A program made the translations under genes and the position numbers. A DNA stretch of 34,565 nucleotides from a virus (taxonomy: Duplodnaviria; Heunggongvirae; Uroviricota; Caudoviricetes): the IMG/VR virus record IMGVR_UViG_2896595138_000002, positions 1 through 34,565 of that record. One strand, written 5' to 3'. Below, piece by piece: positions 4,600 to 33,250 of the stretch (the first letter of the stretch is position 1; each line of letters opens with the position of its first letter). Under the pieces are notes generated by a model. That model saw only the letters and a list, made by a program, of their open reading frames with translations, was not told where the DNA came from and ran no database searches.

Positions 4600-6747
4600 T
4601 TACTGCGAAAGTTTGTTAATGGAAAGGAAGCCGCCAAAGTTGCCGACGTTATTGCGGAACTTACAACCGCTCAGGCATTTGCTGCATTTATCCTTCGTGA
4701 TATCGGACGTTGGCTGGTCATATTCATCCGCGACCGCCGGACCATGATAACCGCACTCATCGCCGCGATAGGTCCAGGTGCAGGTGTTGGCCAGCATGAT
4801 ACGTCCCGGAAAAACAGCGCCGTCCGTTTCCGTCGGCGTGGACAGTACAAAAGAGGCACTCACCGCGCTCAGTTCGCTGCACTGCTCAATGCGCCAGCGG
4901 CTGATCACCTCCTGCTCCGGATCGGCGTCACTGTTTCCGTTGACGAAGTTCACCGCATCCAGAAAACGGGCGTAAACCTTACGCCGGACCACCGTTCCGC
5001 CGACCAGACTCTGCAGATCTTCCGCCATCCCGGTGACCATACCGTACAGGTTAGAAACCGTCAGCGTGGGGCGCGTACTGGTGCCCTTGTCGCCAAGTGC
5101 AGCCAGCTGGTGTTTGTACTCCAGCGTCTCATCTTTATGCGCCAGCAGGGATTTCTCCTGTGCAGACAGCTGGCGACGTTGCGCCGCCTCCTCCAGTACC
5201 GCGAACTGACTCTCCGCCTTCCACAAATCCCGGCGCTGCTGGCTGATTTTCTCATTTGCTCCGGCATGCTTCTCCAGCGTCCGGAGTTCAGCCTGAAGCG
5301 TCAGCAGGGCAGCATGAGCACTGTCTTCCTGACGATCGCCCGCAGACACCTTCACGTCGAACTGTTTCGGCTTTTTCAGCGTCGCTTCATAATCCTTTTT
5401 CGCCGCCGCCATCAGCGTGTTGTAATCTGCCTGCAGAATTTTCCCGTCCTTCAGTGCCTTGTTCAGTTCTTCCTGACGGGCGGTATATTTCTCCAGCGGC
5501 GTCTGCAGGCGTTCATAAGCCTTCTGCGCCTCTTCGGTATATTTCAGCCGTGATGCCTCAGACTCGGCCCAGTCCTTTGCTGCCATCTCTCTGGCCTTTT
5601 CAAGATCGGCCTGCAACGTGCCGGCTGAAAGCCCAAGTTGCGCATTCGCTCTGTCCTCCCATGCTCCCCGGAGATTGGCAAGAAATGCGGATGTTTTACC
5701 GCGCCGGTGGCTCCGGCTCTGATACCACTGCCATTTTTTGTCCGCCTCATCAAAAGCCTTTTCTGCTTTCTCCAGCATTTCCCGGGCAGTGTCCGGGCGA
5801 CCAATATCCAGCACCGAATCCCACATGGATTTGAATGCCCGCGCTGTCCTGTCTGCCCAGGTCTCCAGCGTGCCCATGTTCTCTTTCAGGCGGCGGGTCA
5901 GGTCATCAAACCCTTTCGTTGCGGCCTCGTTCGCCGCCTGCAATGCCCCGGCTTCATCTCCGGAACGCTGCAACTGAGCAACATACGCAATCTGCTCCGC
6001 CGTCACGTTATGGAACTGACGTGCCATCGCTGTCAGTCCCGACGTCGGGTCTGTGGTCAGCTTCCCGAAGGCTTCAGCGACCTTGTCCACCTCCACGCCG
6101 GATGCAGAGGAGAAACGCGCCACACTCTGGCTGATCGCCTCAAACTGCTCACCACCACGCACACCTGCATTCACCAGCGCCGTCAGTGACTCGCTGGTCT
6201 GGTTAAACGTCAGCCCTGCCGCCTGCCCGGCTCTGGACAGGACCAGCATACGATCTGCCGTCAGTCCTGCCTGATTACCGGAAAGGACCAGCGTTTTATT
6301 GAAACTGGACAGGGTTGAGTCCCCCTGATACCAGGCATACGCCAGCGCACCGATCGCCACCGCCAGCGAGGTGGCCCCGACCATCGGCAGGGTGATCGCA
6401 CCGGCAAGCCCCCTGAACATGGGGATCATCCCGCCGAAGGAGTCCTTAACCTGACCACCCTGTTGCAGCAGGATCAGCCACGGACTTTGCCCGCCTGCAA
6501 GCTGCGTGGCCACGTCGGTGAACTGCGCAGGCAGCATACGCATGGCGGCTTTATACTGCCCGACGGAAATCCCCGCTTTCTGTGCAGCCAGCGCCTGTCG
6601 GCTCAGCGACTGTTCAACGACTGCCGCTGTTTTTTTCGCATCACTTTCCGTACCGGAAAAATGACGCCTGACTCTGGCCATCTGCTCGTCAAATCTGGCC
6701 GCATCCAGACTCAAATCAACGACCAGATCGCCTACCGGTTCAGCCAT
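4600..6747 (-). pseudogene. In-frame fusion of lambda H-like tape measure (N-terminal ~560 aa) to the C-terminal ~160 aa of lambda L-like tail protein
   Basis: 715-aa ORF: MAEPVGDLVVDLSLDAARFDEQMARVRRHF... (gpH) switches at ...LAALGDK|GTSTRPTLTVSNLYGMVTGMAED... to gpL C-terminus ending FGGFLSINKLSQ. H C-terminus, all of M and L N-terminus are absent. Confidence 0.8.
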
Positions 6748-11196: not shown

Positions 11197-11529
11197 TTAA
11201 AGGATGCTGATTGCCGTTCCGGCAAACGCGGTCCGTTTTTTCGTCTCATCGCTGGCAGCCTCCGGCCAGAGCACATCCTCATAACGGAACGTGCCGGACT
11301 TGTAGAACGTCAGCGTGGTGCTGGTCTGGTCAGCAGCAACCGCAAGAATACCAACGGCAGCACCGTCGGTGGTGCCATCCCACGCAACCAGCTTACGGGT
11401 GGAGGTGTCCGGCATCAGCGGGGTCATTGCAGGCGCTTTCGCACTCAATCCGCCGGGCGCGGTTGCGGTATGAGCCGGGTCACTGTTGCCCAGCGGCTGG
11501 TAATGGGTAAAGGTTTCTTTGCTCGTCAT
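11197..11529 (-). CDS. D: Lambda D-like head decoration protein
   Basis: [39 protein letters not shown]..., 110 aa. Confidence 0.9.
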
Positions 11530-11552
11530 AAACATCCCTTACACTGGTGTGT

Positions 11553-12856
11553 TCAGCAAATCGTTAACGGCATCAGATGCCGGGTTACCTGCAGCCAGCG
11601 GTGCCGGTGCCCCTGCATCAGACGATCCAGCGCAGTGTCACTGCGCGCCTGTGCACTCTGTGGTGCAGCTGCCAGAATGCGGCGGGCCGTTTCCACGGTC
11701 ATACCAGGGGTTTCGGCCAGCACGCGTGCCTGTTCTTCGCGTCCGTGAGCCTCCTCACAGTTGAGGATCCCCATAATGCGACTGTTTTCTGCCGCAACCG
11801 CTGCGGTGATCTGCGCGTTCACGTCCGGCTGCGCAGCGCTGGCGTTCTCGCCCTCCGTCGCTTGCACCACGCCAGTAACGTCAGCCTGCGAAGCAGTGGC
11901 TGAAACAGTTGTTGATTGAGTCTCTTTGGTCATTCGCCCTCCTGAGAGACGGGATTTACGTGCATCCAGTGCATCACGCATGACGGTGATCGCATCGGTA
12001 CTGTTAACAAGTTCATCAGCCAGTCCGGCATCAATGGCCTCCTGACCGCTGTACACTGCAGCCTCGGTATCCAGCACAGCCTGCACGGACAGGCCGGTAT
12101 ATGCCGACACCTTCTGTGCAAACATCCGGCGGGTTGCATCCATCCGGGACTGCAGTGTTTCCCGGACATCATCCGGTAGATGGCTGTAGGGGTTGCCATC
12201 CACCTTATGGCTGCCGCTGTAAATCAGCGTGATTTCCACGCCCTGTTTCTCCAGCGCAGCACCGTAATTACTGTGAGCCATCATGACGCCGATGGAGCCT
12301 GTCCGGGCGGTCTGCGTGACCAGACGCCGGGAGGCGGCACTGGCAAGCAGCTGACCTGCGCTGCAGTTCATGTCATTGGCCAGCGCCCATACCGGCTTTA
12401 TGTCACGCACACGGGCGATGATGTCAGCGCAGTCAAATGCCCCTGCCACCATTCCGCCGGGCGTGTCCATATCCAGCAGAATGCCGTCCACCATCGGGTC
12501 GCTGGCAGCCTGTTGCAGACGGGCGATAATGCCGTTGTAACCGGTCATCCCGAATACGGCTGCAGCGCCCGCGTCCGGCTGACCAGCGTGCCGGAAACCG
12601 GCAGCACGGCGATGCCGTTCATGACCTGATAACTGCGGGCCTGTCGTGGTCCGTCATCATTAACGGATAACGCCAGCGGCGCGGGTGCCTCTCCGGCAGT
12701 CAGGCTGTCACCGGACACCGCATCCGTCAGGCGGCTGATCCCAAGCTGGCCTGCAAGCGCACAAAAGAAAACCCGCGCATAGGCGGGTTCAAGCATCAGC
12801 GGCTCATTAAAAGCCATGCTGGCAATATGCGGGAGATTACGCAGCTCTGCTGTCAC
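11553..12856 (-). pseudogene. C: Lambda C-like prohead protease / scaffold (S49 peptidase family), with two apparent frameshifts
   Basis: VTAELRNLPHIASMAF...RALQPYSG* (ORF 12545..12991) then MTGYNGIIARLQQAASDPMVDGILLDMDTPGG... (ORF 11553..12548) in another frame; C-terminus reads QGHRHRWLQV... instead of the expected QGAPAPLAAGNPASD. Shifts near 12552 and at C-run 11610..11613. Confidence 0.75.
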
Positions 12857-14121: not shown

Positions 14122-14941
14122 TTTCGCACGTATAAACATCTTTGATGCCAGCGAGGTACAACCATCCCTCCTGTGTGGCAACATACGTCAGGTCCGCCAC
14201 CCAGACCTGATTTGGTGCTGTAGGAGCGAACGTCTGGTTCAGCAGATTTGGCGCAACTGGCAGATTGTGGTTCGGGTTCGTAGTCGCTCTGAACTTGCGT
14301 TTCTGCTTACAGCGTAGCCTTAGCTCCTTACGAAGACGTGCCAGTCGGTCACGACCAACGATGATGCCATTCTCTGCCAGCTCCGTCTGGAGCCGCCGGG
14401 TTCCATATGTTTCGCGAGTGCGGATATGTGCCACCTTAATCTCCAGTTTTAGCCGCTCATCACTTTGTTTTCTGTCTGAGGGTTCATGCTGTACCCAGTT
14501 GTAATAACCGCTCCTGGATACACCAAATACCTGACACATCGCTTCAATGGGAAATTGTTGTCGCCATTGTTCGATTAACGCGTATTTTTCAGCGACTCCT
14601 GTGCAAAATACGCTGTTGCTTTTTTTAATATATCTCGCTCAAGGCGAGCTTCATTTAACGCCTTACGCAGTTGCAGAATTTCAGATTCCAGTTCAGCCAC
14701 CGTGCGGGAACCAGGAGTACCGAGCCCTTTTCTGGCGGCGGTAACCCATTGTCCTAAAGTGCCTTCAGGAAGGGATAATCGGGAAGCGCCTTCACTGATC
14801 GAAAGTTGATTTTCAAGAACCGTTCTGACAGCTTCGGCTTTGAACTCTTTAGAGTAACGTTGGGTTTTTCTGCTCATTATTAGCTCCTTCTGATGCCATT
14901 CTATTTCAGGAAGGAGTGTCCGTTAAACTCAGGCTACCTCA
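14122..14941 (-). mobile_element. IS600 (IS3 family), partial copy 1: left end + orfA + about 140 codons of orfB
   Basis: Left-end sequence TGAGGTAGCCTGAGTTTAACGGACACTCC (RC at 14919..14941); orfA at 14575..14877; identity to the other copies stops at 14122 where portal sequence begins. Confidence 0.85.
14575..14877 (-). CDS. IS600 OrfA (helix-turn-helix transposase subunit)
   Basis: 100-aa ORF MSRKTQRYSKEFKAEAVRTVLENQLSISEGASRLSLPEG...KKATAYFAQESLKNTR; A7 run at plus 14620..14626. Confidence 0.9.
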   Translation of the reverse strand: MSRKTQRYSKEFKAEAVRTVLENQLSISEGASRLSLPEGTLGQWVTAARKGLGTPGSRTVAELESEILQLRKALNEARLERDILKKATAYFAQESLKNTR

Positions 14942-15872
14942 GACTTTTGCTGGCCCGAAGACCAAATCCGAAGCGCCCGTTCTTTTCATCACGAAAGTTT
15001 TGCTCTATCTGCATTCGCCGACTGTATAACTTGATGATTTCTCGCGCTCTGAAGTCATTTGTACTGCTGAAGATCAACCAGGCTTCTTTTGCTGATTTGC
15101 TCTGTTCTTTGTCTGTTTTGTTTAAACCACTCTGACCTTTCGAACGTTTCTTTTTTCGCCCTTTTGCCGATTTCTTATAGGTGTAAAAATGCCCCCGGAT
15201 GCTTTTTTTCCTTTCTTTAACCAGCCTTCCAGCCCCCATATATTCCGGTGTTTTACATTCAGGGCTATCCGACACTTTTAACCATCTTTCAGGCGCGTTA
15301 TCGAGGCAATACTGAACGTTATTTCTGATCCGACCAATAAAATCCCAGCCCAGAGAAGTAATATGGTGAAACCATGCGCTCTGAAATCCAGCATCCGTGA
15401 CAATAATAACCCTGGCATCGGGGGGCAGGGATTGAGCAAGGGAATCAAGGAAATCATGTTGTATCAATGGATTATTTTGTTTTTCAGAAGGAACAACCTT
15501 ACTCAATAACGGAATGGAACGCCCGTCACACAGAAGGCTGGCACGAAGAACATGATGCTCCTGGGAGGGATAGCCACTCCAGTCTACGGCTATTACACAT
15601 AAAGATAACTGCCGTGTCAGCATTGAAGTGATATTCCTGAAAATCATTGGAATATCGCGATGGAGCGCCTCATTACCCATGAGGCGATCAATACGTTTGA
15701 TCTTATTCTTAACTTGTGCATTACCCGGCAAAAAACGTCCGATACTGGTCAGCGTCAGAGATGCTCCGTTGATTAACGCCACTGTGGCATCCATCAGGGC
15801 ATTTTGTCGGTACTGATGAAATGGTGCTAAGGCATCCCGGAAGAAATTCTGACATACTTTATGAACAGGCAT
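14942..15872 (-). pseudogene. IS10-like DDE transposase, C-terminal ~80 aa missing
   Basis: Homology ends at the IS600 junction, about 14941. Confidence 0.7.
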
Positions 15873-15954
15873 AGCAGTGATCTCATTGAATTGTTGGCAC
15901 AAATCAGTAGATCACATAATGCTATGTCTGTCTCGTTTTCTGGGGATTCCTCAG
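14942..15954 (-). mobile_element. IS4-family (IS10-like) element fragment, 3'-truncated by IS600 copy 1
   Basis: Transposase ORF 14934..15902 with IS10-like motifs (IKRIDRL, VDWS, LRAS, DAGF, KGRKKKRS, IYSKRMQIEQNFRD); terminus CTGAGGAATCCCC (RC) at about 15942..15954. Confidence 0.7.
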
Positions 15955-15982: not shown

Positions 15983-18084
<2,102 letters not shown>

Positions 18085-18110
<26 letters not shown>

Positions 18111-21083: not shown

Positions 21084-22348
21084 TGAGGTAGCCTGAGTTT
21101 AACGGACACTCCTTCCTGAAATAGAATGGCATCAGAAGGAGCTAATAATGAGCAGAAAAACCCAACGTTACTCTAAAGAGTTCAAAGCCGAAGCTGTCAG
21201 AACGGTTCTTGAAAATCAACTTTCGATCAGTGAAGGCGCTTCCCGATTATCCCTTCCTGAAGGCACTTTAGGACAATGGGTTACCGCCGCCAGAAAAGGG
21301 CTCGGTACTCCTGGTTCCCGCACGGTGGCTGAACTGGAATCTGAAATTCTGCAACTGCGTAAGGCGTTAAATGAAGCTCGCTTTGAGCGAGATATATTAA
21401 AAAAAAGCAACAGCGTATTTTGCACAGGAGTCGCTGAAAAATACGCGTTAATCGAACAATGGCGACAACAATTTCCCATTGAAGCGATGTGTCAGGTATT
21501 TGGTGTATCCAGGAGCGGTTATTACAACCGGGTACAGCATGAACCCTCAGACAGAAAACAAAGTGATGAGCGGCTAAAACTGGAGATTAAGGTGGCACAT
21601 ATCCGCACTCGCGAAACATATGGAACCCGGCGGCTCCAGACGGAGCTGGCAGAGAATGGCATCATCGTTGGTCGTGACCGACTGGCACGTCTTCGTAAGG
21701 AGCTAAGGCTACGCTGTAAGCAGAAACGCAAGTTCAGAGCGACTACGAACCCGAACCACAATCTGCCAGTTGCGCCAAATCTGCTGAACCAGACGTTCGC
21801 TCCTACAGCACCAAATCAGGTCTGGGTGGCGGACCTGACGTATGTTGCCACACAGGAGGGATGGTTGTACCTCGCTGGCATCAAAGATGTTTATACGTGC
21901 GAAATTGTCGGCTACGCCATGGGAGCGCGCATGACAAAAGAGCTGACAGGTAAAGCCCTGTTTATGGCGCTCAGGAGCCAGCGCCCACCTGCCGGGCTAA
22001 TCCACCACCCTGATCGAGGTTCACAGTACTGCGCATACGATTACCGGGTCATACAGGAGCAGTTTGGTCTGAAAACATCAATGTCGCGTAAAGGTAACTG
22101 TTACGACAACGCTCCGATGGAAAGCTTCTGGGGAACGCTGAAAAATGAGAGCCTGAGCCACTATCGTTTTAATAACCGGGATGAAGCCATCTCAGTAATA
22201 CGGGAATACATTGAGATTTTCTACAATCGTCAGCGTCGTCACTCTCGTCTGGGGAATATCTCCCCGGCAGCCTTCAGGGAAAAATATCATCAGATGGCTG
22301 CTTAAAAAAAGAACAAATGGTAGTGTCCGCTATTGCCAGTACACCTCA
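21084..22348 (+). mobile_element. IS600 copy 2, complete, flanked by 3-bp direct repeat GAG
   Basis: Ends TGAGGTAGCCTGAG... and ...GCCAGTACACCTCA; GAG at 21081..21083 and 22349..22351; 1265 bp. Confidence 0.9.
21148..22305 (+). CDS. IS600 transposase as a single fused OrfAB reading frame (385 aa)
   Basis: A8 run at 21399..21406 (A7 in copies 1 and 3) joins orfA to orfB in one frame: ...DILKKSNSVFCTGVAEKYALIEQWRQQFPIEAMCQVFGVSR...; DDE domain present. Confidence 0.85.
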   Translation: MSRKTQRYSKEFKAEAVRTVLENQLSISEGASRLSLPEGTLGQWVTAARKGLGTPGSRTVAELESEILQLRKALNEARFERDILKKSNSVFCTGVAEKYALIEQWRQQFPIEAMCQVFGVSRSGYYNRVQHEPSDRKQSDERLKLEIKVAHIRTRETYGTRRLQTELAENGIIVGRDRLARLRKELRLRCKQKRKFRATTNPNHNLPVAPNLLNQTFAPTAPNQVWVADLTYVATQEGWLYLAGIKDVYTCEIVGYAMGARMTKELTGKALFMALRSQRPPAGLIHHPDRGSQYCAYDYRVIQEQFGLKTSMSRKGNCYDNAPMESFWGTLKNESLSHYRFNNRDEAISVIREYIEIFYNRQRRHSRLGNISPAAFREKYHQMAA

Positions 22349-26087: not shown

Positions 26088-26741
26088 TCAGCGTTCCCAG
26101 AAGCTTTCCATCGGAGCGTTGTCGTAACAGTTACCTTTACGCGACATTGATGTTTTCAGACCAAACTGCTCCTGTATGACCCGGTAATCGTATGCGCAGT
26201 ACTGTGAACCTCGATCAGAGTGGTGGATTAGCCCGGCAGGTGGGCGCTGGCTCCTGAGCGCCATAAACAGGGCTTTACCTGTCAGCTCTTTTGTCATGCG
26301 CTCTCCCATGGCGTAGCCGACAATTTCGCACGTATAAACATCTTTGATGCCAGCGAGGTACAACCATCCCTCCTGTGTGGCAACATACGTCAGGTCCGCC
26401 ACCCAGACCTGATTTGGTGCTGTAGGAGCGAACGTCTGGTTCAGCAGATTTGGCGCAACTGGCAGATTGTGGTTCGGGTTCGTAGTCGCTCTGAACTTGC
26501 GTTTCTGCTTACAGCGTAGCCTTAGCTCCTTACGAAGACGTGCCAGTCGGTCACGACCAACGATGATGCCATTCTCTGCCAGCTCCGTCTGGAGCCGCCG
26601 GGTTCCATATGTTTCGCGAGTGCGGATATGTGCCACCTTAATCTCCAGTTTTAGCCGCTCATCACTTTGTTTTCTGTCTGAGGGTTCATGCTGTACCCAG
26701 TTGTAATAACCGCTCCTGGATACACCAAATACCTGACACAT
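26088..26741 (-). CDS. IS600 OrfB (DDE integrase domain), 3' end frameshifted
   Basis: ORF ends ...ESFWER*, other copies read ...ESFWGTLKNESLSHYRF...; C-run 26089..26091 is 3 long. Confidence 0.8.
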   Translation of the reverse strand: MCQVFGVSRSGYYNWVQHEPSDRKQSDERLKLEIKVAHIRTRETYGTRRLQTELAENGIIVGRDRLARLRKELRLRCKQKRKFRATTNPNHNLPVAPNLLNQTFAPTAPNQVWVADLTYVATQEGWLYLAGIKDVYTCEIVGYAMGERMTKELTGKALFMALRSQRPPAGLIHHSDRGSQYCAYDYRVIQEQFGLKTSMSRKGNCYDNAPMESFWER

Positions 26742-26776
26742 CGCTTCAATGGGAAATTGTTGTCGCCATTGTTCGA

Positions 26777-27079
26777 TTAACGCGTATTTTTCAGCGACTC
26801 CTGTGCAAAATACGCTGTTGCTTTTTTTAATATATCTCGCTCAAGGCGAGCTTCATTTAACGCCTTACGCAGTTGCAGAATTTCAGATTCCAGTTCAGCC
26901 ACCGTGCGGGAACCAGGAGTACCGAGCCCTTTTCTGGCGGCGGTAACCCATTGTCCTAAAGTGCCTTCAGGAAGGGATAATCGGGAAGCGCCTTCACTGA
27001 TCGAAAGTTGATTTTCAGGAACCGTTCTGACAGCTTCGGCTTTGAACTCTTTAGAGTAACGTTGGGTTTTTCTGCTCAT
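26777..27079 (-). CDS. IS600 OrfA
   Basis: 100-aa ORF identical in pattern to copy 1 except L20P (RTVPENQ). Confidence 0.9.
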   Translation of the reverse strand: MSRKTQRYSKEFKAEAVRTVPENQLSISEGASRLSLPEGTLGQWVTAARKGLGTPGSRTVAELESEILQLRKALNEARLERDILKKATAYFAQESLKNTR

Positions 27080-27294: not shown

Positions 27295-27534
27295 ATGGGT
27301 AGCATTAACCTGCGTATTGACGATGAACTTAAAGCGCGTTCTTACGCCGCGCTTGAAAAAATGGGTGTAACTCCTTCTGAAGCGCTTCGTCTCATGCTCG
27401 AGTATATCGCTGACAATGAACGCTTGCCGTTCAAACAGACACTCCTGAGTGATGAAGATGCTGAACTTGTGGAGATAGTGAAAGAACGGCTTCGTAATCC
27501 TAAGCCAGTACGTGTGACGCTGGATGAACTCTGA
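27295..27534 (+). CDS. relB: RelB antitoxin
   Basis: 79-aa ORF MGSINLRIDDELKARSYAALEKMGVTPSEALRLMLEYIADNERLPFKQTLLSDEDAELVEIVKERLRNPKPVRVTLDEL. Confidence 0.95.
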   Translation: MGSINLRIDDELKARSYAALEKMGVTPSEALRLMLEYIADNERLPFKQTLLSDEDAELVEIVKERLRNPKPVRVTLDEL

Positions 27535-27821
27535 TGGCGTATTTTCTGGATTTTGACGAGCGGGCACTAAAGGAATGGCGAAAGCTGGGCTCGACGGTAC
27601 GTGAACAGTTGAAAAAGAAGCTGGTTGAAGTACTTGAGTCACCCCGGATTGAAGCAAACAAGCTCCGTGGTATGCCTGATTGTTACAAGATTAAGCTCCG
27701 GTCTTCAGGCTATCGCCTTGTATACCAGGTTATAGACGAGAAAGTTGTCGTTTTCGTGATTTCTGTTGGGAAAAGAGAACGCTCGGAAGTATATAGCGAG
27801 GCGGTCAAACGCATTCTCTGA
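27534..27821 (+). CDS. relE: RelE mRNA interferase toxin
   Basis: 95-aa ORF MAYFLDFDERALKEWRKLGSTVREQLKKKLVEVLESPRIEANKLRGMPDCYKIKLRSSGYRLVYQVIDEKVVVFVISVGKRER...; ATGA overlap with relB. Confidence 0.95.
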   Translation: MAYFLDFDERALKEWRKLGSTVREQLKKKLVEVLESPRIEANKLRGMPDCYKIKLRSSGYRLVYQVIDEKVVVFVISVGKRERSEVYSEAVKRIL

Positions 27822-27892
27822 ACCAAAGCATGACATCTCTGTTTCGCACCGAAGGTGACACTTCTGCTTTGCGTTGACAGGAGAAGCAGGCT

Positions 27893-28048
27893 ATGAAGCA
27901 GCAAAAGGCGATGTTAATCGCCCTGATCGTCATCTGTTTAACCGTCATAGTGACGGCACTGGTAACGAGGAAAGACCTCTGCGAGGTACGAATCCGAACC
28001 GGCCAGACGGAGGTCGCTGTCTTCACAGCTTACGAACCTGAGGAGTAA
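27893..28048 (+). CDS. hokD: Hok-family type I toxin (HokD/RelF-like), 51 aa
   Basis: MKQQKAMLIALIVICLTVIVTALVTRKDLCEVRIRTGQTEVAVFTAYEPEE, translated directly from the sequence (below the ORF-track size cutoff). Confidence 0.85.
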   Translation: MKQQKAMLIALIVICLTVIVTALVTRKDLCEVRIRTGQTEVAVFTAYEPEE

Positions 28049-28116: not shown

Positions 28117-28147
28117 AACCCGCTTCGGCGGGTTTTTGTTTTTATTT
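28117..28147 (+). terminator. Rho-independent terminator after hokD
   Basis: AACCCGCttcgGCGGGTTTTTGTTTTTATTTT. Confidence 0.75.
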
Positions 28148-28265
28148 TCAACGCATTTGAAATTCTGGATGGTGCCGGAATAGAATCAAAAATACTTAAG
28201 TAGCGCGCAGGGATAAGAGGGATGGACCCCGAACAGGGGAGTGCTATTTATCTGGAAGGATTCTG

Positions 28266-28517
28266 ATGATGAACATCGAAGAACTGCGTAAAATTTTTTG
28301 TGAAGATGGCCTCTATGCTGTGTGCGTTGAAAATGGAAATATTGTTAGTCATTACCGCATTGTGTGTTTGCAAAAAAATGGGGCTGCGTTAATTAATTTT
28401 GTGGATGCCCGAGTGACGGACGGATTTATCTTGCGCGACGGTGAGTTTGTCACTTCATTACAGGCATTGAAAGAGATCGGAATAAAAGCTGGCTTTTCTG
28501 CTTTTTCAGAAGAATAA
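28266..28517 (+). CDS. rem: Small prophage protein of unknown function (Rem-like position and size)
   Basis: 83-aa ORF immediately downstream of relBE-hokD, as for rem in Qin; identity by position and length only. Confidence 0.5.
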   Translation: MMNIEELRKIFCEDGLYAVCVENGNIVSHYRIVCLQKNGAALINFVDARVTDGFILRDGEFVTSLQALKEIGIKAGFSAFSEE

Positions 28518-28582
28518 ACTCATCTACAATCTTGCGCGGGCTGAACTCCCGCTGAGTAACACCGTGCCACCGGAGAAAACCG

Positions 28583-28861
28583 ATGGCACGCAACGCAAAA
28601 TATTACAATCATGATAATTCGACCGTTCTTGCCCACACGCACGAGCGGTATTCTCACGCATTTAAGTCAGACTGGTACCAGCATCCCTCATGCACTGAAG
28701 AACAGGCCGAATGGCTCATTCAGTGTTACCGCAGGCGCGGATGCGAGGTTAAAAAAGCCCTTAGCCTCGACTACCGTCACTGGATAATCTCCGTCAGGCT
28801 CCCTTACTCCGAACAGCCACCGCGTCCGTCCCGCACATTCCAGCAACGGATCTGGAGGTAA
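28583..28861 (+). CDS. Hypothetical 92-aa protein, stop/start-coupled to the following gene
   Basis: ORF ends TAA 1 nt before the GTG start of the next gene; Cys/His-containing. Confidence 0.4.
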   Translation: MARNAKYYNHDNSTVLAHTHERYSHAFKSDWYQHPSCTEEQAEWLIQCYRRRGCEVKKALSLDYRHWIISVRLPYSEQPPRPSRTFQQRIWR

Positions 28862-28862
28862 C

Positions 28863-29912
28863 GTGCGGGTATTACTTCGACCTGTTCTGGTTCCGGAACT
28901 CGGGCTGGTGGTCCTTAAGCCCGGTCGTGAATCCATGCCGGTATTCCACAATACCCGGTTACTGGTGGAGCCGGAACCGAAAAGCATGCGTAATCTGCCG
29001 TCCGGGGTCGTTCCTGCCGCTCGCCAGCCGCTGGTGGAAGACAAAACATTGCTGCCGTTTTTCAGTAACGCACGGGTGATTCGTGCTGCTGGTGGTGCTG
29101 GTGCATTGTCTGACTGGCTGTTGCGCCATATTAAATCCTGCCAGTGGCCACACGGCGATTATCATCACAGCGAAACCGTCATTCACCGTTATGGTACCGG
29201 CGCAATGGTGTTGTGCTGGCACTGCGACAACCAGCTGCGTGACCAGACATCCGAATCACTCGAGCAACTTGCTCATCAAAACCTGTCAGCATGGATGATT
29301 GACGTCATCGGTCACGCAATAAGCGGTACGCAGGAGCGTGAACTATCTCTGGCTGAATTATCCTGGTGGGCGGTCCGCAATCAGGTGGCGGACGCGCTAC
29401 CGGAAGCGGTATTACGTCGTTCGCTGGGGTTGCGTGCGGAAAAAATCCGCTCAATGTTCCGTGAAAGCGACATCGTACCGGGAGAGCAGACCGCCACCAG
29501 CATACTGAAACAGCGCACAAAAAATCTTGCGCCGCTGCCTCACGCCCACCAGCAACAGAACCCACCACAGGAAAAGACGGTGGTCAGCATTGCCGTTGAT
29601 CCTGAGTCTCCGGAATCTTTCATGAAACGACCTAAACGTCGCCGCTGGGTTAACGAGAAATACAAACGCTGGGTGAAGACACAGCCGTGTGCGTGTTGTG
29701 GTAAGCCAGCCGACGATCCCCATCACCTGATTGGTCATGGTCAGGGCGGAATGGGGACAAAATCTCACGATATTTTCACGCTACCGCTGTGTCGGGAGCA
29801 TCACAACGAGCTTCATGCGGATCCTCTGGCGTTCGAAGAAAAGCATGGTTCTCAGGTTGATTTAATTTTTCGTTTTCTTGATCACGCCTTTGCAACTGGC
29901 GTGCTTGGGTAA
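28863..29912 (+). CDS. ydfU: DUF968-like protein with C-terminal HNH-type Cys/His motif (YdfU-like)
   Basis: 349-aa ORF; ...QPCACCGKPADDPHHLIGHGQGGMGTKSHDIFTLPLCREHHNELH...; sits between rem and rusA/Q. Confidence 0.6.
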   Translation: MRVLLRPVLVPELGLVVLKPGRESMPVFHNTRLLVEPEPKSMRNLPSGVVPAARQPLVEDKTLLPFFSNARVIRAAGGAGALSDWLLRHIKSCQWPHGDYHHSETVIHRYGTGAMVLCWHCDNQLRDQTSESLEQLAHQNLSAWMIDVIGHAISGTQERELSLAELSWWAVRNQVADALPEAVLRRSLGLRAEKIRSMFRESDIVPGEQTATSILKQRTKNLAPLPHAHQQQNPPQEKTVVSIAVDPESPESFMKRPKRRRWVNEKYKRWVKTQPCACCGKPADDPHHLIGHGQGGMGTKSHDIFTLPLCREHHNELHADPLAFEEKHGSQVDLIFRFLDHAFATGVLG

Positions 29913-29924
29913 AAGAGGTGACTG

Positions 29925-30282
29925 ATGCTCATAGATTTGGTTTTACCTTACCCGCCGACGGTGAACACTTACTGGCGACGCCGTGGCAGCACATATTTTA
30001 TCTCGGAGGAGGGAAAGCGTTATCGCCGGGCTGTGGCGCTTATTGTTCGCCAGCAGCGGCTGAAATTAAGCCTGTCCGGAAGGCTGGCGATAAAGGTGAT
30101 TGCAGAGCCACCGGATAAGCGTCGTCGCGACCTGCGACAATATCCTGAAAGCACCGCTGGATGCGCTGACGCATACGGGAGTGTTAATGGACGATGAGCA
30201 GTTTGATGAAATCAATATCGTTCGTGGTCAGCCAGTATCTGGTGGACGTCTGGGGGTGAAGATTTACCCCATAATGCATTAA
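29925..30282 (+). pseudogene. rusA: RusA-like Holliday junction resolvase, frameshifted
   Basis: ORF 29925..30197 (MLIDLVLPYPPTVNTYWRRRG...EPPDKRRRDL) then ORF 30100..30282 (...DNILKAPLDALTHTGVLMDDEQFDEINIVRGQPVSGGRLGVKIY) in the +1 frame; single-base insertion near 30121. Confidence 0.75.
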
Positions 30283-30296
30283 GAGCAGGTCAAAAA

Positions 30297-31118
30297 ATGA
30301 AACTGGAAGATTTACCGAAATACTACTCCCCAAAATCCCCTGGCCTGACCGATGCATCGGCCTCAACGTCAAAAGATGCGCTGAGTATCACTGATGTGAT
30401 GGCCGCGCAGGGCATGACACAGAATCGGGCTGAGATGGGTTTTTCTGCGTTCCTGGGGAAAATGGGCATCAGTATGAATGACAGGGCGCGGGCAACAGAA
30501 TTACTGGCAGATTATGCACTCAGTCGGTGCGATCGTGTGGCGGCGTTGAGAAAACTTCCGGCAGAAATAAAACCGGTAGTGATGCGCATTATGGCTTCGT
30601 ACGCTTTTGAGGATTATGCCCGCAGCGCAGCGAGTAAAAAGCAGTGCCCTTGTTGCTATGGGGAAAAATTTATTGAAAGCATAGTTTTTACAAACAAGGT
30701 CCAGTATCCGGATGGTAAGCCGCCGGTATGGGCAAAGTGTACGAAAGGTGTGTATCCGTCTTACTGGGAAGAATGGAAAAAAGTCAGGGAGGTGGTAAAA
30801 GTTGCCTGTCCGGAGTGTGGCGGAAAGGGTGAGGTTTCCACCGCCTGTAAGGATTGCCGTGGGCGTGGTGTCGCCATTCATCGTGAAGAGTCGGTAAAAC
30901 GTGGTATGCCTGTTATCAGAGACTGCCAGCGTTGTGGTGGTCGTGGCTATGAAAGACTACCATCAACGGAGGCATTTAATGCTATATGCGAGGTGACAAA
31001 CCAGATAACACGCGCGTCATGGGAAAAAACAGTTAAGAAATTTTATGATGCGCTGGTGACCCGGTTTGATATTGAAGAAGCATGGGCTGAGCGGCAGTTA
31101 AAAAAGGTAACTAGGTAA
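30297..31118 (+). CDS. Late-gene antiterminator Q-like protein with DnaJ-type CxxCxGxG zinc-finger repeats
   Basis: 273-aa ORF just upstream of a promoter/terminator pair and tRNAs; motifs CPECGGKG, CKDCRGRG, CQRCGGRG; placement after rusA typical of lambdoid Q. Confidence 0.6.
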   Translation: MKLEDLPKYYSPKSPGLTDASASTSKDALSITDVMAAQGMTQNRAEMGFSAFLGKMGISMNDRARATELLADYALSRCDRVAALRKLPAEIKPVVMRIMASYAFEDYARSAASKKQCPCCYGEKFIESIVFTNKVQYPDGKPPVWAKCTKGVYPSYWEEWKKVREVVKVACPECGGKGEVSTACKDCRGRGVAIHREESVKRGMPVIRDCQRCGGRGYERLPSTEAFNAICEVTNQITRASWEKTVKKFYDALVTRFDIEEAWAERQLKKVTR

Positions 31119-31269: not shown

Positions 31270-31345
31270 GGCCCTTTAGCTCAGTGGTGAGAGCGAGCGA
31301 CTCATAATCGCCAGGTCGCTGGTTCAAATCCAGCAAGGGCCACCA
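31270..31345 (+). tRNA. ileZ: tRNA with CAU anticodon (Ile2/ileZ-like, or Met)
   Basis: 76 nt GGCCCTTTAGCTCAGTGGTGAGAGCGAGCGACTCATAATCGCCAGGTCGCTGGTTCAAATCCAGCAAGGGCCACCA; cloverleaf folds with a 7-bp acceptor stem and encoded CCA. Confidence 0.85.
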
Positions 31346-31443: not shown

Positions 31444-31520
31444 GCGTTGTTAGCTCAGCCGGACAGAGCAATTGCCTTCTAAGCAATCGGTCACTGGTTC
31501 GAATCCAGTACAGCGCGCCA
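31444..31520 (+). tRNA. argN: tRNA-Arg (anticodon UCU), argN/argU-like
   Basis: 77 nt GCGTTGTTAGCTCAGCCGGACAGAGCAATTGCCTTCTAAGCAATCGGTCACTGGTTCGAATCCAGTACAGCGCGCCA; anticodon loop CTTCTAA. Confidence 0.85.
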
Positions 31521-31985: not shown

Positions 31986-33250
31986 TGAGGTAGCCTGAGT
32001 TTAACGGACACTCCTTCCTGAAATAGAATGGCATCAGAAGGAGCTAATAATGAGCAGAAAAACCCAACGTTACTCTAAAGAGTTCAAAGCCGAAGCTGTC
32101 AGAACGGTTCCTGAAAATCAACTTTCGATCAGTGAAGGCGCTTCCCGATTATCCCTTCCTGAAGGCACTTTAGGACAATGGGTTACCGCCGCCAGAAAAG
32201 GGCTCGGTACTCCTGGTTCCCGCACGGTGGCTGAACTGGAATCTGAAATTCTGCAACTGCGTAAGGCGTTAAATGAAGCTCGCTTTGAGCGAGATATATT
32301 AAAAAAAAGCAACAGCGTATTTTGCACAGGAGTCGCTGAAAAATACGCGTTAATCGAACAATGGCGACAACAATTTCCCATTGAAGCGATGTGTCAGGTA
32401 TTTGGTGTATCCAGGAGCGGTTATTACAACCGGGTACAGCATGAACCCTCAGACAGAAAACAAAGTGATGAGCGGCTAAAACTGGAGATTAAGGTGGCAC
32501 ATATCCGCACTCGCGAAACATATGGAACCCGGCGGCTCCAGACGGAGCTGGCAGAGAATGGCATCATCGTTGGTCGTGACCGACTGGCACGTCTTCGTAA
32601 GGAGCTAAGGCTACGCTGTAAGCAGAAACGCAAGTTCAGAGCGACTACGAACCCGAACCACAATCTGCCAGTTGCGCCAAATCTGCTGAACCAGACGTTC
32701 GCTCCTACAGCACCAAATCAGGTCTGGGTGGCGGACCTGACGTATGTTGCCACACAGGAGGGATGGTTGTACCTCGCTGGCATCAAAGATGTTTATACGT
32801 GCGAAATTGTCGGCTACGCCATGGGAGAGCGCATGACAAAAGAGCTGACAGGTAAAGCCCTGTTTATGGCGCTCAGGAGCCAGCGCCCACCTGCCGGGCT
32901 AATCCACCACTCTGATCGAGGTTCACAGTACTGCGCATACGATTACCGGGTCATACAGGAGCAGTTTGGTCTGAAAACATTAATGTCGCGTAAAGGTAAC
33001 TGTTACGACAACGCTCCGATGGAAAGCTTCTGGGGAACGCTGAAAAATGAGAGCCTGAGCCACTATCGTTTTAATAACCGGGATGAAGCCATCTCAGTAA
33101 TACGGGAATACATTGAGATTTTCTACAATCGTCAGCGTCGTCACTCTCGTCTGGGGAATATCTCCCCGGCAGCCTTCAGGGAAAAATATCATCAGATGGC
33201 TGCTTAAAAAAAGAACAAATGGTAGTGTCCGCTATTGCCAGTACACCTCA
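31986..33250 (+). mobile_element. IS600 copy 4, complete, no target-site duplication
   Basis: Both termini present; flanks AGA / TCA differ; 1265 bp. Confidence 0.9.
32050..33207 (+). CDS. IS600 fused OrfAB transposase (385 aa)
   Basis: A8 run at 32301..32308, as in copy 2. Confidence 0.85.
   Translation: MSRKTQRYSKEFKAEAVRTVPENQLSISEGASRLSLPEGTLGQWVTAARKGLGTPGSRTVAELESEILQLRKALNEARFERDILKKSNSVFCTGVAEKYALIEQWRQQFPIEAMCQVFGVSRSGYYNRVQHEPSDRKQSDERLKLEIKVAHIRTRETYGTRRLQTELAENGIIVGRDRLARLRKELRLRCKQKRKFRATTNPNHNLPVAPNLLNQTFAPTAPNQVWVADLTYVATQEGWLYLAGIKDVYTCEIVGYAMGERMTKELTGKALFMALRSQRPPAGLIHHSDRGSQYCAYDYRVIQEQFGLKTLMSRKGNCYDNAPMESFWGTLKNESLSHYRFNNRDEAISVIREYIEIFYNRQRRHSRLGNISPAAFREKYHQMAA

Follow-up and report, generated by a model that had tools for sequence, protein, structure and literature searches.

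A Small Basic Protein and a Predicted His-Me Finger Nuclease Encoded Side by Side in a Qin-Type Prophage

The DUF968 and DUF1364 protein families have been placed in group 7 of the His-Me finger superfamily, a superfamily in which Rap (NinG) is also classed (PMC5714182). Rap is a DNA branch-specific endonuclease (PMC4118853). YbcO has been assigned to the Ref-like nucleases (PMC4999995), and a role like that of the RecA-dependent endonucleases has been suggested (PMC5714182). The nuclease role of DUF968 is predicted only (PMC5714182, PMC4999995), and the DUF968 protein YdfU is listed as uncharacterized in the 2024 survey of the y-ome (PMC11551758).

In the window (the whole stretch of DNA that was analyzed, 34,565 nucleotides in length), the gene for a 349-amino acid DUF968 protein is found directly behind a small open reading frame of 92 codons, denoted here as ORF92. 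An initial annotation of this DNA had noted that the function of the DUF968-like family is not established, in agreement with the literature (PMC11551758, PMC5714182, PMC4999995). It had also taken the tight coupling of the two genes to suggest a two-component unit. ORF92 and ydfU were found to be already catalogued prophage genes and ordinary members of a nin region. The sole modest lead is the association of the small protein with nucleases.

Gene Order and Gene Boundaries

A direct read of the window places the ATG of ORF92 at position 28583 and its TAA at 28859–28861. The 349-amino acid ORF extends from a GTG at 28863 to 29912 in a reading frame that differs from that of ORF92, and the C at 28862 is the sole spacer base between the TAA and the GTG. 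The initial annotation had put the stop codon of ORF92 one nucleotide before the GTG of the DUF968 protein, and this is confirmed. The gene order in the window is rem-ORF92-ydfU-rusA-Q, with the following features.

28266..28517, + strand: rem, the upstream neighbor of ORF92 in Qin-type prophages, at a gap of 65 nt ("protein Rem" in RefSeq relatives)
28572..28575, + strand: Shine-Dalgarno sequence GGAG of ORF92, 7 nt 5' of the ATG (read from the sequence)
28583..28861, + strand: ORF92, a 92-amino acid member of phrog_1212, "hypothetical protein" in RefSeq (homologues; dN/dS of 0.19)
28583..28660, + strand: N-terminal extension of ORF92, codons 1–26 (absent from homologues of 66–69 amino acids; low pLDDT)
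28661..28807, + strand: predicted beta-alpha-beta-beta core domain of ORF92, residues 27–75 (AlphaFold2 model, invariant residues, dN/dS)
28808..28858, + strand: basic C-terminal tail of ORF92, PPRPSRTFQQRIWR (its protein sequence is kept even in phage N15)
28830..28869, + strand: predicted RNA hairpin that joins the 3' end of ORF92 with the Shine-Dalgarno sequence and GTG of ydfU (minimum-free-energy fold)
28854..28858, + strand: Shine-Dalgarno sequence GGAGG of ydfU, within the final codons of ORF92 (unchanged in all 75 related loci)
28863..29912, + strand: ydfU orthologue, 349-amino acid DUF968 protein with a GTG start (Pfam, PHROG, position in K-12)
28863..29537, + strand: N-terminal domain of YdfU, residues 1 to approximately 225 (phrog_11007 match, model, conservation)
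29139..29240, + strand: predicted beta-beta-alpha element of the YdfU N-terminal domain, residues 93–126 (model and conserved Cys)
29541..29582, + strand: disordered interdomain linker of YdfU, residues 227–240 (pLDDT below 50; length varies in the alignment)
29595..29909, + strand: predicted C-terminal His-Me finger (HNH) domain of YdfU, residues 245–349 (motif, model, hhalign)
29688..29816, + strand: HNH core motif of YdfU, residues 276–318 (conserved motif)
29925..30300, + strand: rusA (Holliday-junction resolvase), disrupted (Pfam RusA on a 90-amino acid N-terminal fragment)
30297..31118, + strand: late antiterminator gene of the Q type, which closes the nin-like operon (Pfam Antiterm, E = 6e-55)

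The disruption of rusA is due to a 1-nt insertion near position 30135, one extra C relative to the intact 124-amino acid gene of strain MLI110. In RefSeq, strain MLI110 and K-12 Qin are annotated with these five genes. At least 80% of the 2.1-kb region is present in 3327 of 5426 complete E. coli genomes, and the ORF92-ydfU pair is also found in phage genome records, such as those of the HannyBb, Tritos, and PPompW phages. With any match counted, the region extends to 4562 of these 5426 genomes, the majority, and yet YdfU, Rem, and the ORF92 family are functionally blank.

The junction TGGAGGTAA(C/T)GTG is identical in all 75 related IMG/VR loci. The dN/dS ratio of ORF92 was determined to be 0.19 in frame versus 1.4–1.5 in the two other frames. 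Because of these two results and the many clusters of homologues described below, ORF92 is judged to be a genuine small basic protein and a coding sequence rather than a chance ORF. The same results bear on whether a frameshift or sequencing error has broken a single gene into ORF92 and the 349-amino acid ORF, a possibility raised in the initial annotation, or whether ORF92 is a leader ORF with an irrelevant peptide. A 438-amino acid in-frame ORF92-YdfU fusion is on record (P0204), the ydfU frame is open for 13–26 codons upstream in some alleles, and the predicted hairpin would tie the translation of ydfU to ribosomes at the end of ORF92. The fusion is a singleton (one member on one contig), however, and the two-gene junction is invariant. 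The members of the ORF92 family are free-standing proteins of 66–92 amino acids beside varied downstream genes, and the YdfU homologues begin at an aligned M1 and do not possess an ORF92-like N-terminus. The homologues of ORF92 itself are 90–92 amino acids in length, and the E. coli DUF968 clusters, which have thousands of members, contain separate proteins of 348–352 amino acids. The selection on ORF92 is strongly purifying at the protein level. The junction, homologue, and selection evidence already refutes the split-gene version, and we regard either version as hardly credible. ORF92 and ydfU are instead two distinct genes, located in the early-right (nin-like) operon of a defective lambdoid prophage of the Qin type.

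The GGAGG of ydfU at 28854–28858 ends 4 nt before the GTG. Since residues 1–24 of YdfU are conserved in full-length homologues down to 26–30% identity and are confidently modeled (pLDDT 87–91), the GTG at 28863 is taken from alignment and model to be the true start. With a ribosome binding site in the last codons of ORF92 and a start codon one base after the TAA, ydfU would be translated by termination-reinitiation coupling, and a hairpin that masks both the GGAGG and the GTG may add to this coupling. In 15 variants, 13 pairs of the hairpin at 28830–28869 are 98.5% paired, and the only changes are one-sided, from C-G to U-G. No covariation was found in these 15 variants, and the z-score for the fold of a 111-nt segment (−0.46) is not significant. 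The hairpin is thus, by inference only, a possible basis of translational coupling. The coupling of ydfU to ORF92 is ordinary operon compaction.

Properties of YdfU and of ORF92

Remote homology searches and structure prediction for both proteins, which the initial annotation had recommended, led to DUF968 and the His-Me finger for the longer protein and to phrog_1212 for ORF92. The 349-amino acid protein matches Pfam DUF968 (PF06147) with a score of 254.9 bits against a cutoff of 27.8 (E = 5.3e-76), and its residues 160–346 cover positions 1–171 of the 171-position model. It is matched over its full length by phrog_96 and is 79–97% identical to E. coli DUF968 protein clusters, among the matches listed. 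Besides DUF968, Pfam gave a weak match to HNHc_6. From these comparisons and its position, the protein is the orthologue of YdfU (b1560) from the Qin prophage of E. coli K-12. The NCBIfam models returned nothing above noise for the locus, and the PADLOC defense models matched neither ORF92 nor YdfU.

The CxxC...HH...H...H (HNH-like) motif that had been noticed at the C-terminus of the DUF968 protein is present and intact, as C276-x2-C279, H287-H288, C310-x2-H313-H314, and H318. In an alignment of 40 homologues, down to approximately 24% identity, C276 and D303 are invariant, and conservation is 90% or higher at H287, H288, H314, and H318. The structural model of YdfU has a pLDDT of 85 and contains a beta-beta-alpha unit at residues 285–319, composed of strands 285–288 and 306–309 and helix 311–319, with pLDDT values of 92–96 around these elements. 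The model has the characteristics by which a His-Me finger is recognized: the beta-beta-alpha arrangement, a histidine at the end of the first strand, zinc ligands, and a histidine in the helix. When the model was compared with solved structures in the PDB using Foldseek, the best matches were to HNH domains at E-values that are not significant (1.4 or higher), and PDB sequence searches with YdfU and with the family profile gave nothing useful. We consider it probable that YdfU is a DNA nuclease, with an intact Ref/YbcO-type His-Me finger (HNH) as its C-terminal domain. The literature that was searched holds no biochemical report for YdfU, YbcO, or the ORF92 family, and the nuclease activity and the substrate of YdfU are therefore predictions.

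The N-terminal domain of YdfU is conserved in the full-length homologues and is modeled mostly with pLDDT values of 79–94, which drop to 65–67 around residues 191–210. Residues 2–135 match phrog_11007, a family of unknown function, and as far as sequence comparison indicates, the domain is confined to this family. It contains a smaller element with modeled strands at residues 105–110 and 113–118 and a helix at residues 119–125. Zinc may be bound in this element by C93, H101 (replaced by Cys in the majority of homologues), C118, and C121. Among its residues, C93 and C118 do not vary, and W119 and D122 hardly do. This pattern is HNH-like, and since the element does not have a conserved catalytic histidine, the putative beta-beta-alpha zinc element is probably structural. 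A second active HNH site in the N-terminal domain was rejected for the same reason, and the hhalign comparison with the C-terminal domain (E = 0.059) is not significant. Proteins in which the N-terminus of YdfU is fused to tail-fiber, portal, or capsid domains look like chimeras from prophage deletions and are uninformative about function.

Residues 27–92 of ORF92 match positions 1–66 of the 66-position profile of phrog_1212 (E = 3.5e-35), and no Pfam family was matched. Homologues were identified in 127 close clusters and 530 profile-level clusters, and the family is found in enterobacterial temperate phages. An intact homologue, missing from the RefSeq annotation, is encoded in K-12 MG1655 (NC_000913.3, 1644306–1644584, minus strand). 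The dN/dS ratio is 0.095 for codons 27–66 and 0.10 for codons 67–92 (pS of 0.215). For codons 1–26, which occur in the Escherichia/Shigella clade only and are predicted to be disordered, no purifying selection was detectable (dN/dS of approximately 1.9 on few sites). The AlphaFold2 model has pLDDT values of 90–93 for residues 31–70 and below 50 for residues 1–23. As modeled, ORF92 (pI 9.5) is a small basic beta-alpha-beta-beta domain followed by a conserved basic and aromatic C-terminal tail. A Foldseek search with this model found no fold match in the PDB, and Orf QD1 of phage N15 is its only significant structural neighbor in BFVD (E = 7e-4).

The invariant residues of ORF92 are H34, C37, T38, Q41, A42, Y49, G53, L60, D63, W67, S70, and L73. 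The protein contains three cysteines and six histidines, and only H34 and C37 are conserved family-wide; C48, C54, and the N-terminal histidines vary, even in K-12. With two rather than four conserved Cys/His ligands, ORF92 lacks the signature of a Cys/His metal site. The description of ORF92 as a Cys/His ORF does not hold as a functional label, and a zinc-finger protein was rejected on the same grounds.

Several other assignments for ORF92 were considered and set aside. In a profile search of the PDB, the SH2 domain of TXK was matched at E = 0.41, which is not significant. The pattern W[FY]H..T..QAE..L is suggestive of SH2, but an SH2 domain is twice as large as the domain of ORF92, and no SH2 domain was found among the 50 Foldseek PDB matches listed. 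A glyoxalase-like fold was rejected as well, since the matches to PF00903 in 22 of 59 family members are weak and below threshold (best E of 0.021). These weak matches are a mere hint of a half module of the beta-alpha-beta-beta-beta type in the ORF92 family. ORF92 has no homology to NinD, NinE, NinF, NinH, NinB, or Ren of phage lambda; for the small Nin proteins (NinD, NinE, NinF, and NinH), hmmsearch gave E-values of 0.3 or higher and hhalign gave probabilities of 0.2% or lower. The likeness between the KPKPIPK..KTF..W of NinE and the tail of ORF92 is visual and carries no statistical support. A clamp-binding motif in the C-terminal QQRIW is speculation, and its first position is R or Q across the family and thus not conserved.

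Association of the ORF92 Family with Nuclease Genes

In 49 diverse loci, the gene that follows the ORF92-family gene encodes NinG, YbcO, or a DUF968 protein in approximately 45 cases (about 92%), with NinG in 21, YbcO in 15, and DUF968 in 9 (the YbcO and DUF968 matches partly overlap). The spacing to the nuclease gene is −25 to +2 nt, again in approximately 45 of the 49. This regularity favors a reading in which ORF92 is a dedicated partner of His-Me nucleases, with a regulatory, targeting, or inhibitory function, that recognizes a surface common to NinG, YbcO, and YdfU and is supplied in fixed proportion through coupling. Further points in its favor are a pairing with a Klebsiella YdfU-like gene in phage Kp4865-4 (small gene at 11396–11593, YdfU-like match from 11656), the nuclease (a DEDDh exonuclease) encoded downstream in N15, the basic character of ORF92 with its strongly conserved tail as a possible docking peptide, and the one natural in-frame fusion to YdfU. 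Within the Escherichia clade, ORF92 and YdfU were never seen apart.

The converse does not hold. Of 80 YdfU-like loci, the small gene is present in 19, each of them Escherichia-type, and in 0 of the 61 others. In phage records, the ORF92 family was counted 54–59 times versus 748, 309, and 263 times for the nucleases, which are thus 5–14 times more frequent and occur mostly without it. The E. coli phages Ayreon and PPyecE contain YdfU and do not contain an ORF92-family gene; their ydfU genes, like lambda NinG, are preceded by other, nonhomologous genes. Close relatives among the small proteins are paired with NinG in some loci and with YbcO in others, and one cluster has 14 YbcO and 20 NinG partners. 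The spacing is generic: among the 61 YdfU-like genes, 43 share a 4-nt overlap with an unrelated gene upstream, and near-zero spacing to any upstream gene is the norm for the YdfU family. Taken together, a dedicated partnership is a tentative reading that we would not favor. The reciprocal co-occurrence expected of an obligate two-subunit nuclease or of an immunity pair was not found.

An immunity pair, in which ORF92 would neutralize a toxic HNH nuclease in the manner of the colicin immunity proteins or an antitoxin, deserves separate mention. The small gene adjoins the HNH nuclease gene upstream and is translationally coupled to it, and prophage genes behind a strong Rho-dependent terminator upstream of ydfU have been described as toxic (PMC9160355). 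The excess of nucleases over the small gene and the 61 loci from which the small gene is absent argue against such a pair, as does the lack of a PADLOC match for either protein. The only toxin- or antitoxin-related match in NCBIfam is below threshold and on rem, not ORF92, and the label "toxin to Rem" that one GenBank record gives was assigned automatically and has no support. Colicin immunity proteins are four-helix proteins, and the fold modeled for ORF92 is unlike theirs. We consider an immunity pair very unlikely.

The ORF92-family gene usually has an Orf/NinB-like DUF1367 gene before it and the nuclease gene after it. The DUF1367 gene is conserved in approximately 32 non-Escherichia loci, within a few bases upstream. 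When a YbcO locus was compared with a NinG locus, a homology block of approximately 810 nt was found to span the DUF1367 gene and the small gene and to break off at the nuclease gene, precisely on the stop codon that closes the small gene. Downstream of the family gene in Erwinia phage 59, PY54, and N15 lies a gene that does not encode a His-Me nuclease. The small gene travels with DUF1367, which speaks against a dedicated nuclease partner and for a function of ORF92 with the upstream recombination-mediator module, or for a host-directed role, with the nuclease adjacency as inherited gene order. In the Escherichia clade, including the window, however, the upstream gene is rem or hok and not DUF1367, and the link to DUF1367 is therefore not obligatory either. 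A function with DUF1367 or the host appears improbable as the whole account, and it is not exclusive of the accessory role outlined below.

The association of the ORF92 family with nucleases is, on these gene-neighborhood comparisons, real but one-sided. The proposed two-component unit stands insofar as a nuclease gene regularly follows ORF92-family genes. It does not stand in the other direction, given that the spacing is generic, that nucleases are far more frequent, and that the breakpoint lies exactly between the two genes. Since the small gene is apparently exchanged independently of the nuclease and is dispensable for nucleases, the ORF92 family would not be an obligate subunit. The frequency with which a nuclease follows, over three Pfam families, is beyond confident attribution to synteny and leaves room for a functional link.

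Proposed Roles and Comparison with Known Systems

YdfU would be a two-domain protein, with a C-terminal His-Me finger nuclease and an N-terminal domain that most likely binds the substrate or a partner. Next to RusA, it occupies a position where related phages have Rap/NinG or YbcO. Judged from family and position, its most likely job would be the cutting of branched or recombination-intermediate DNA in phage recombination and replication. The ORF92 family would be a portable accessory gene of the recombination region, and the best guess for ORF92 is that it modulates the recombination module by binding DNA or a partner. This explanation as a whole, with two genes of a nin-like operon, a nuclease YdfU, and an accessory ORF92, is the one that we hold to be probable. 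It is possible, though doubtful, that ORF92/phrog_1212 is more specifically a portable accessory factor of the phage His-Me finger recombination nucleases (Rap/NinG, YbcO, and YdfU), one that docks via its C-terminal PRPSRTxQQRIW tail and tunes, targets, or restrains the cleavage of recombination intermediates. If so, the pair in the window would be a facultative two-component nuclease module.

Part of the value of these results is in what they clear away: no frameshift has split the pair from a single gene, ORF92 does not belong to the zinc-finger proteins, and tight spacing is not evidence of a complex. What is gained is a homologue of ORF92 that is intact in K-12 MG1655, under purifying selection in relatives, and lacking from the annotation of that genome. 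An uncharacterized small-protein family found preferentially before three predicted or known families of recombination nucleases is also a testable candidate, of interest to work on phage recombination of the Rap, RusA, and Orf type.

The YdfU of K-12 is approximately 86% identical to the protein from the window (K-12-type sequences P0204 and P0222), has the same length of 349 amino acids and the same C-terminal motif, and is encoded in the same place between rem and the Q antiterminator gene. In K-12 Qin, rusA has been lost between ydfU and the Q gene (ydfT), whereas the window retains a frameshifted rusA. The family phrog_1212, known too as Orf QD1 of N15, has a profile that is covered in whole by residues 27–92 of ORF92; the disordered N-terminal extension of 26 residues is confined to the Escherichia/Shigella clade.

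Among the proteins compared, the best profile match for the C-terminal domain of YdfU is Ref from phage P1, a RecA-dependent HNH endonuclease (PDB id: 3PLW). The hhalign comparison, which is pairwise and made with small alignments, gave E = 2.1e-5, a probability of 77%, and 35% identity over 55 columns that span the CxxC, HH, and LPLCxxHH elements. The N-terminus of Ref is disordered and basic, and is thus unlike the folded N-terminal domain of YdfU. YbcO (DUF1364, PF07102, PDB id: 3G27), a predicted His-Me finger nuclease from prophage DLP12, belongs to the same superfamily group and shares the slot of YdfU upstream of rusA and Q. It is a single-domain protein of approximately 96 amino acids, whereas YdfU has an additional N-terminal domain of approximately 225 residues and a linker. 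Proteins of the YbcO type were matched by the C-terminal domain of YdfU at E = 1.2e-4. Because this relation is at the profile level and YdfU does not match the Pfam model for YbcO, the YdfU family would be a sister of YbcO/DUF1364 and not a member. Lambda Rap (NinG) fills the same genomic slot before Q, and its sequence is not significantly related to that of YdfU outside the CxxC element; YdfU does not match Pfam NinG (PF05766), and the hhalign probability is 9.6%. By this comparison, NinG/Rap is a positional analogue of YdfU only, and the gene before it in lambda encodes NinF, a protein with no relation to ORF92.

Genomic setting of the gene pair

The gene pair lies in the right arm of a Qin-type lambdoid prophage, with the following features:

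27295: relB, upstream of ORF92
27534: relE, upstream of ORF92
27893: hokD, upstream of ORF92
28266-28517: rem, directly before ORF92
28583-28861 (+): ORF92, ATG start, 92 codons, TAA stop
28854-28858 (+): Shine-Dalgarno sequence GGAGG of the DUF968 gene, within the last codons of ORF92, 4 nt 5' of the GTG
28863-29912 (+): DUF968 gene (ydfU), GTG start, 349 codons, in a different reading frame from ORF92
29925-30300: rusA, after the DUF968 gene
30297-31118: Q antiterminator, after rusA
31270-31345: tRNA-Met (CAT), just 3' of Q
31444-31520: tRNA-Arg (TCT), just 3' of Q, after tRNA-Met

Many Stx-type and Qin-type lambdoid phages likewise have tRNA-Met and tRNA-Arg genes 3' of Q. A strong hairpin resembling an intrinsic terminator (28117-28134) follows the toxin-antitoxin genes relB-relE and hokD (27295-28048), and a promoter-like site (28157-28186) is found ahead of rem. 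Relative to the intact 124-aa gene of E. coli MLI110, rusA contains an extra C near 30135 that leaves ORFs of 90 and 60 aa; this 1-nt insertion reflects either a pseudogene or a sequencing error.

The RefSeq genome of MLI110 has the identical gene order, with ORF92 as hypothetical protein WP_001515373.1 followed by a "DUF968 domain-containing protein". The DUF968 gene of K-12 MG1655 is ydfU (b1560). The 2.1-kb region was matched in 4562 of 5426 complete E. coli genomes, 3327 of which carry at least 80% of it, and the pair also occurs in phage records (e.g., HannyBb, mEp460_ev081, Tritos, and the PPompW phages). ORF92 and ydfU are already catalogued, very common prophage genes, and the interest of the pair is low to modest. 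An intact 92-aa homologue of ORF92 lies between rem and ydfU in K-12 MG1655 (NC_000913.3, 1644306-1644584 (-); 4307-4585 (-) of our K-12 comparison locus, L002). That RefSeq record leaves it unannotated; in other strains its counterpart is called by PGAP.

Elsewhere the window consists of rearranged lambdoid structural genes riddled with IS elements, and heavy IS disruption of a prophage region is typical of Shigella. A 385-aa IS3-family transposase, as a single fused ORF, is present in two copies (21148-22305 and 32050-33207), a partial IS3-family element adjoins relB (26088-27079 (-)), and a DDE_Tnp_1 transposase lies within the structural genes (14934-15902 (-)). The large terminase gene (16845-18110 (-)) is truncated inside its nuclease domain. 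A 715-aa ORF (4600-6747 (-)) joins the N-terminus of the tape-measure protein to minor tail protein L, implying an internal deletion. The structural genes and the nin-like operon are on opposite strands, so the region is either rearranged or made up of two prophage remnants.

The junction of ORF92 and ydfU

The coordinates, 1-nt spacing, GTG start, and C-terminal HNH-like motif described in the initial annotation were found to be accurate by ORF reading and Pfam. A single base, C 28862, separates the ORF92 stop codon from the GTG of ydfU. ORF92 has its own GGAG, 7 nt 5' of its ATG.

The two ORFs might be a single gene split by a frameshift, and one in-frame fusion was found: P0204, a 438-aa singleton from one K-12-like contig. 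This fusion was caused by a small deletion that took out the ORF92 stop codon together with the three codons before it and the spacer base after it. The remaining long DUF968 variants are internal duplications or gene calls extended upstream. All 75 IMG/VR loci that bear the ORF92 tail share the junction TGGAGGTAA(C/T)GTG and its 1-nt spacer. DUF968 proteins in clusters of thousands measure 348-352 aa, and ORF92 homologues 90-92 aa. The single-gene reading fails, and ORF92 and ydfU are separate genes. The true start of ydfU is the GTG and not codon 25, an ATG chosen in one phage annotation: the first 24 residues are conserved, the model is confident there, and full-length distant homologues align from Met1.

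The spacing and the Shine-Dalgarno position are consistent with termination-reinitiation coupling of ydfU to ORF92. In a predicted hairpin (28830-28869), the ydfU Shine-Dalgarno sequence and GTG are base-paired with the final stretch of ORF92. Natural variants preserve 98.5% of its pairs, solely through C-G to U-G changes; no compensatory change was found among them, and the fold energy is not unusual. We treat this hairpin over the ydfU start as hypothetical. A strong Rho-dependent terminator "upstream of ydfU" has been published for K-12 (PMC9160355), and by that wording it should fall within or close to the ORF92 homologue that lacks annotation there. A 118-aa antisense ORF (28688-29044 (-)) that crosses the junction matched no family and most likely only mirrors the coding strand.

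The ORF92 family and its neighbours

ORF92 is a genuine gene, and its core is portable. An overall dN/dS of 0.19 was obtained from 35 distinct 92-codon alleles, with lower values over codons 27-66 (0.095) and codons 67-92 (0.10); the two other reading frames give 1.4-1.5. No purifying selection was detected over codons 1-26 (dN/dS ~1.9, few sites), which are modelled as disordered. Residues 27-92 match the whole phrog_1212 profile, whose function is unassigned. By tblastn and profile search, homologues of 66-69 aa were found in temperate phages and prophages of Salmonella (Gifsy-1, Gifsy-2), Klebsiella, Citrobacter, Enterobacter, Kluyvera, Cronobacter, Edwardsiella, Erwinia, and Yersinia (PY54), and in N15. 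None of the family members in the 530 clusters has a Pfam domain or name.

The invariant positions are H34, C37, T38, Q41, A42, Y49, G53, L60, D63, W67, S70, L73, R81, and W91. ORF92 had been described as a Cys/His protein; Cys and His residues other than H34 and C37 vary, and it is therefore not a Cys/His metal site. Protein-level conservation of the C-terminal tail, PRPSRTxQQRIW, extends as far as N15. The AlphaFold2 model (mean pLDDT 72, about 90-93 at residues 31-70) is a beta-alpha-beta-beta fold with a weakly predicted terminal helix. A structure search returned no solved structure with E <0.4, and the sole BFVD match was the N15 homologue, "Orf QD1". In N15 the ORF for this protein (~75 aa; 2992-3219 of our N15 locus, about 35930-36157 of NC_001901.1) is unannotated in RefSeq and shares 10 nt with the beginning of gene 41, which encodes a DEDDh exonuclease carrying a Lar-like zinc ribbon. 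ORF92 (pI 9.5) is a conserved small basic protein whose role is unassigned.

The tight coupling had been taken to suggest a two-component unit. We examined 49 diverse loci with an ORF92-family gene, 9 from phages and 40 from genomes of different species. In nearly all of them the following gene begins -25 to +2 nt from the small gene, and it belongs to one of three Pfam families of His-Me finger nucleases: NinG (21), YbcO (15), or DUF968 (9), the last two partly overlapping. The other loci have the N15 exonuclease, a Dcm methylase, one RusA, or PY54 ORF48 in this position. A His-Me nuclease comes next in ~92% of the loci, and the association with the ORF92 family is therefore real.

The association runs in one direction. 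Among 80 YdfU-like IMG/VR loci, the small gene is present in 19, all Escherichia-type, and in 0 of the other 61, where an antirepressor, methyltransferase, RusA, or other gene is upstream. The nuclease gene overlaps its upstream neighbour by 4 nt in 43 of these 61, so that close packing is generic. E. coli phages Ayreon and PPyecE lack the small gene and encode a YdfU of 54% identity. Of 50,697 phage records, 54-59 contain the small family, compared with 748 for NinG-like, 309 for YbcO-like, and 263 for YdfU-like genes. In lambda the protein encoded just ahead of NinG is NinF, and it has no relation to ORF92. The 66-69 aa genes usually sit a few bases 3' of a DUF1367 (Orf/NinB-like) gene, and one small-protein cluster at 65% identity has 14 YbcO and 20 NinG partners. 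Two Klebsiella loci, L090 (YbcO) and L127 (NinG), share ~97% identity across 810 nt that take in DUF1367 and the small gene up to its stop codon; from the first base beyond it, identity is ~25%, a very sharp mosaic boundary at which NinG takes the place of YbcO.

The small gene is exchangeable as a cassette of its own, for which a following His-Me nuclease is preferred and not required, and the nucleases are independent of it. We consider a two-component ORF92-YdfU system unlikely; most of the evidence favours ordinary operon neighbours.

YdfU as a predicted nuclease

The 349-aa product matches Pfam DUF968 at 254.9 bits (cut-off 27.8), with a weak match to HNHc_6. In its model (mean pLDDT 85), a disordered linker (residues 227-240) separates an N-terminal domain (1 to about 225) from a C-terminal domain (245-349). 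A beta-beta-alpha element at residues 285-319 bears the conserved Cys and His in the model and alignment; the motif is C276-x2-C279, H287-H288, C310-x2-H313-H314, H318. A second beta-beta-alpha at residues 105-125 of the N-terminal domain has invariant C93 and C118 and nearly invariant W119 and D122. The alignment revealed no conserved catalytic His in it and profile comparison no significant similarity to the C-terminal domain; we read it as a structural zinc element.

Full-length homologues, 26% identical, were found in P1-like phages (e.g., MH445381.1, 58689-59609; "PdcB" in one record), and the family therefore extends past lambdoid nin regions. In five database proteins (P0309, P0358, P0359, P0293, and P0338) the YdfU N-terminus is fused to a tail-fibre, tip-attachment, portal, or capsid domain; they look like products of large prophage deletions starting within ydfU.

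We found no functional study of YdfU in the literature searched, and it was listed as uncharacterised in 2024 (PMC11551758). DUF968, with YdfU by name, has been grouped with DUF1364/YbcO (PDB 3G27) in His-Me finger group 7 (PMC5714182), and YbcO is a predicted nuclease related to P1 Ref (PMC4999995). Profile comparison of the YdfU C-terminal domain gave E 2.1e-5 with P1 Ref (35% identity, 55 columns) and 1.2e-4 with YbcO-type proteins, in modest agreement, at the sequence level, with the published placement. Foldseek matches of the whole-length query to HNH domains (IscB, Cap5, Cascade-HNH, and Gme HNH) were non-significant. YdfU is best regarded as a predicted Ref/YbcO-type His-Me nuclease with an added N-terminal domain, in the Rap/YbcO position of the nin recombination module, next to RusA.
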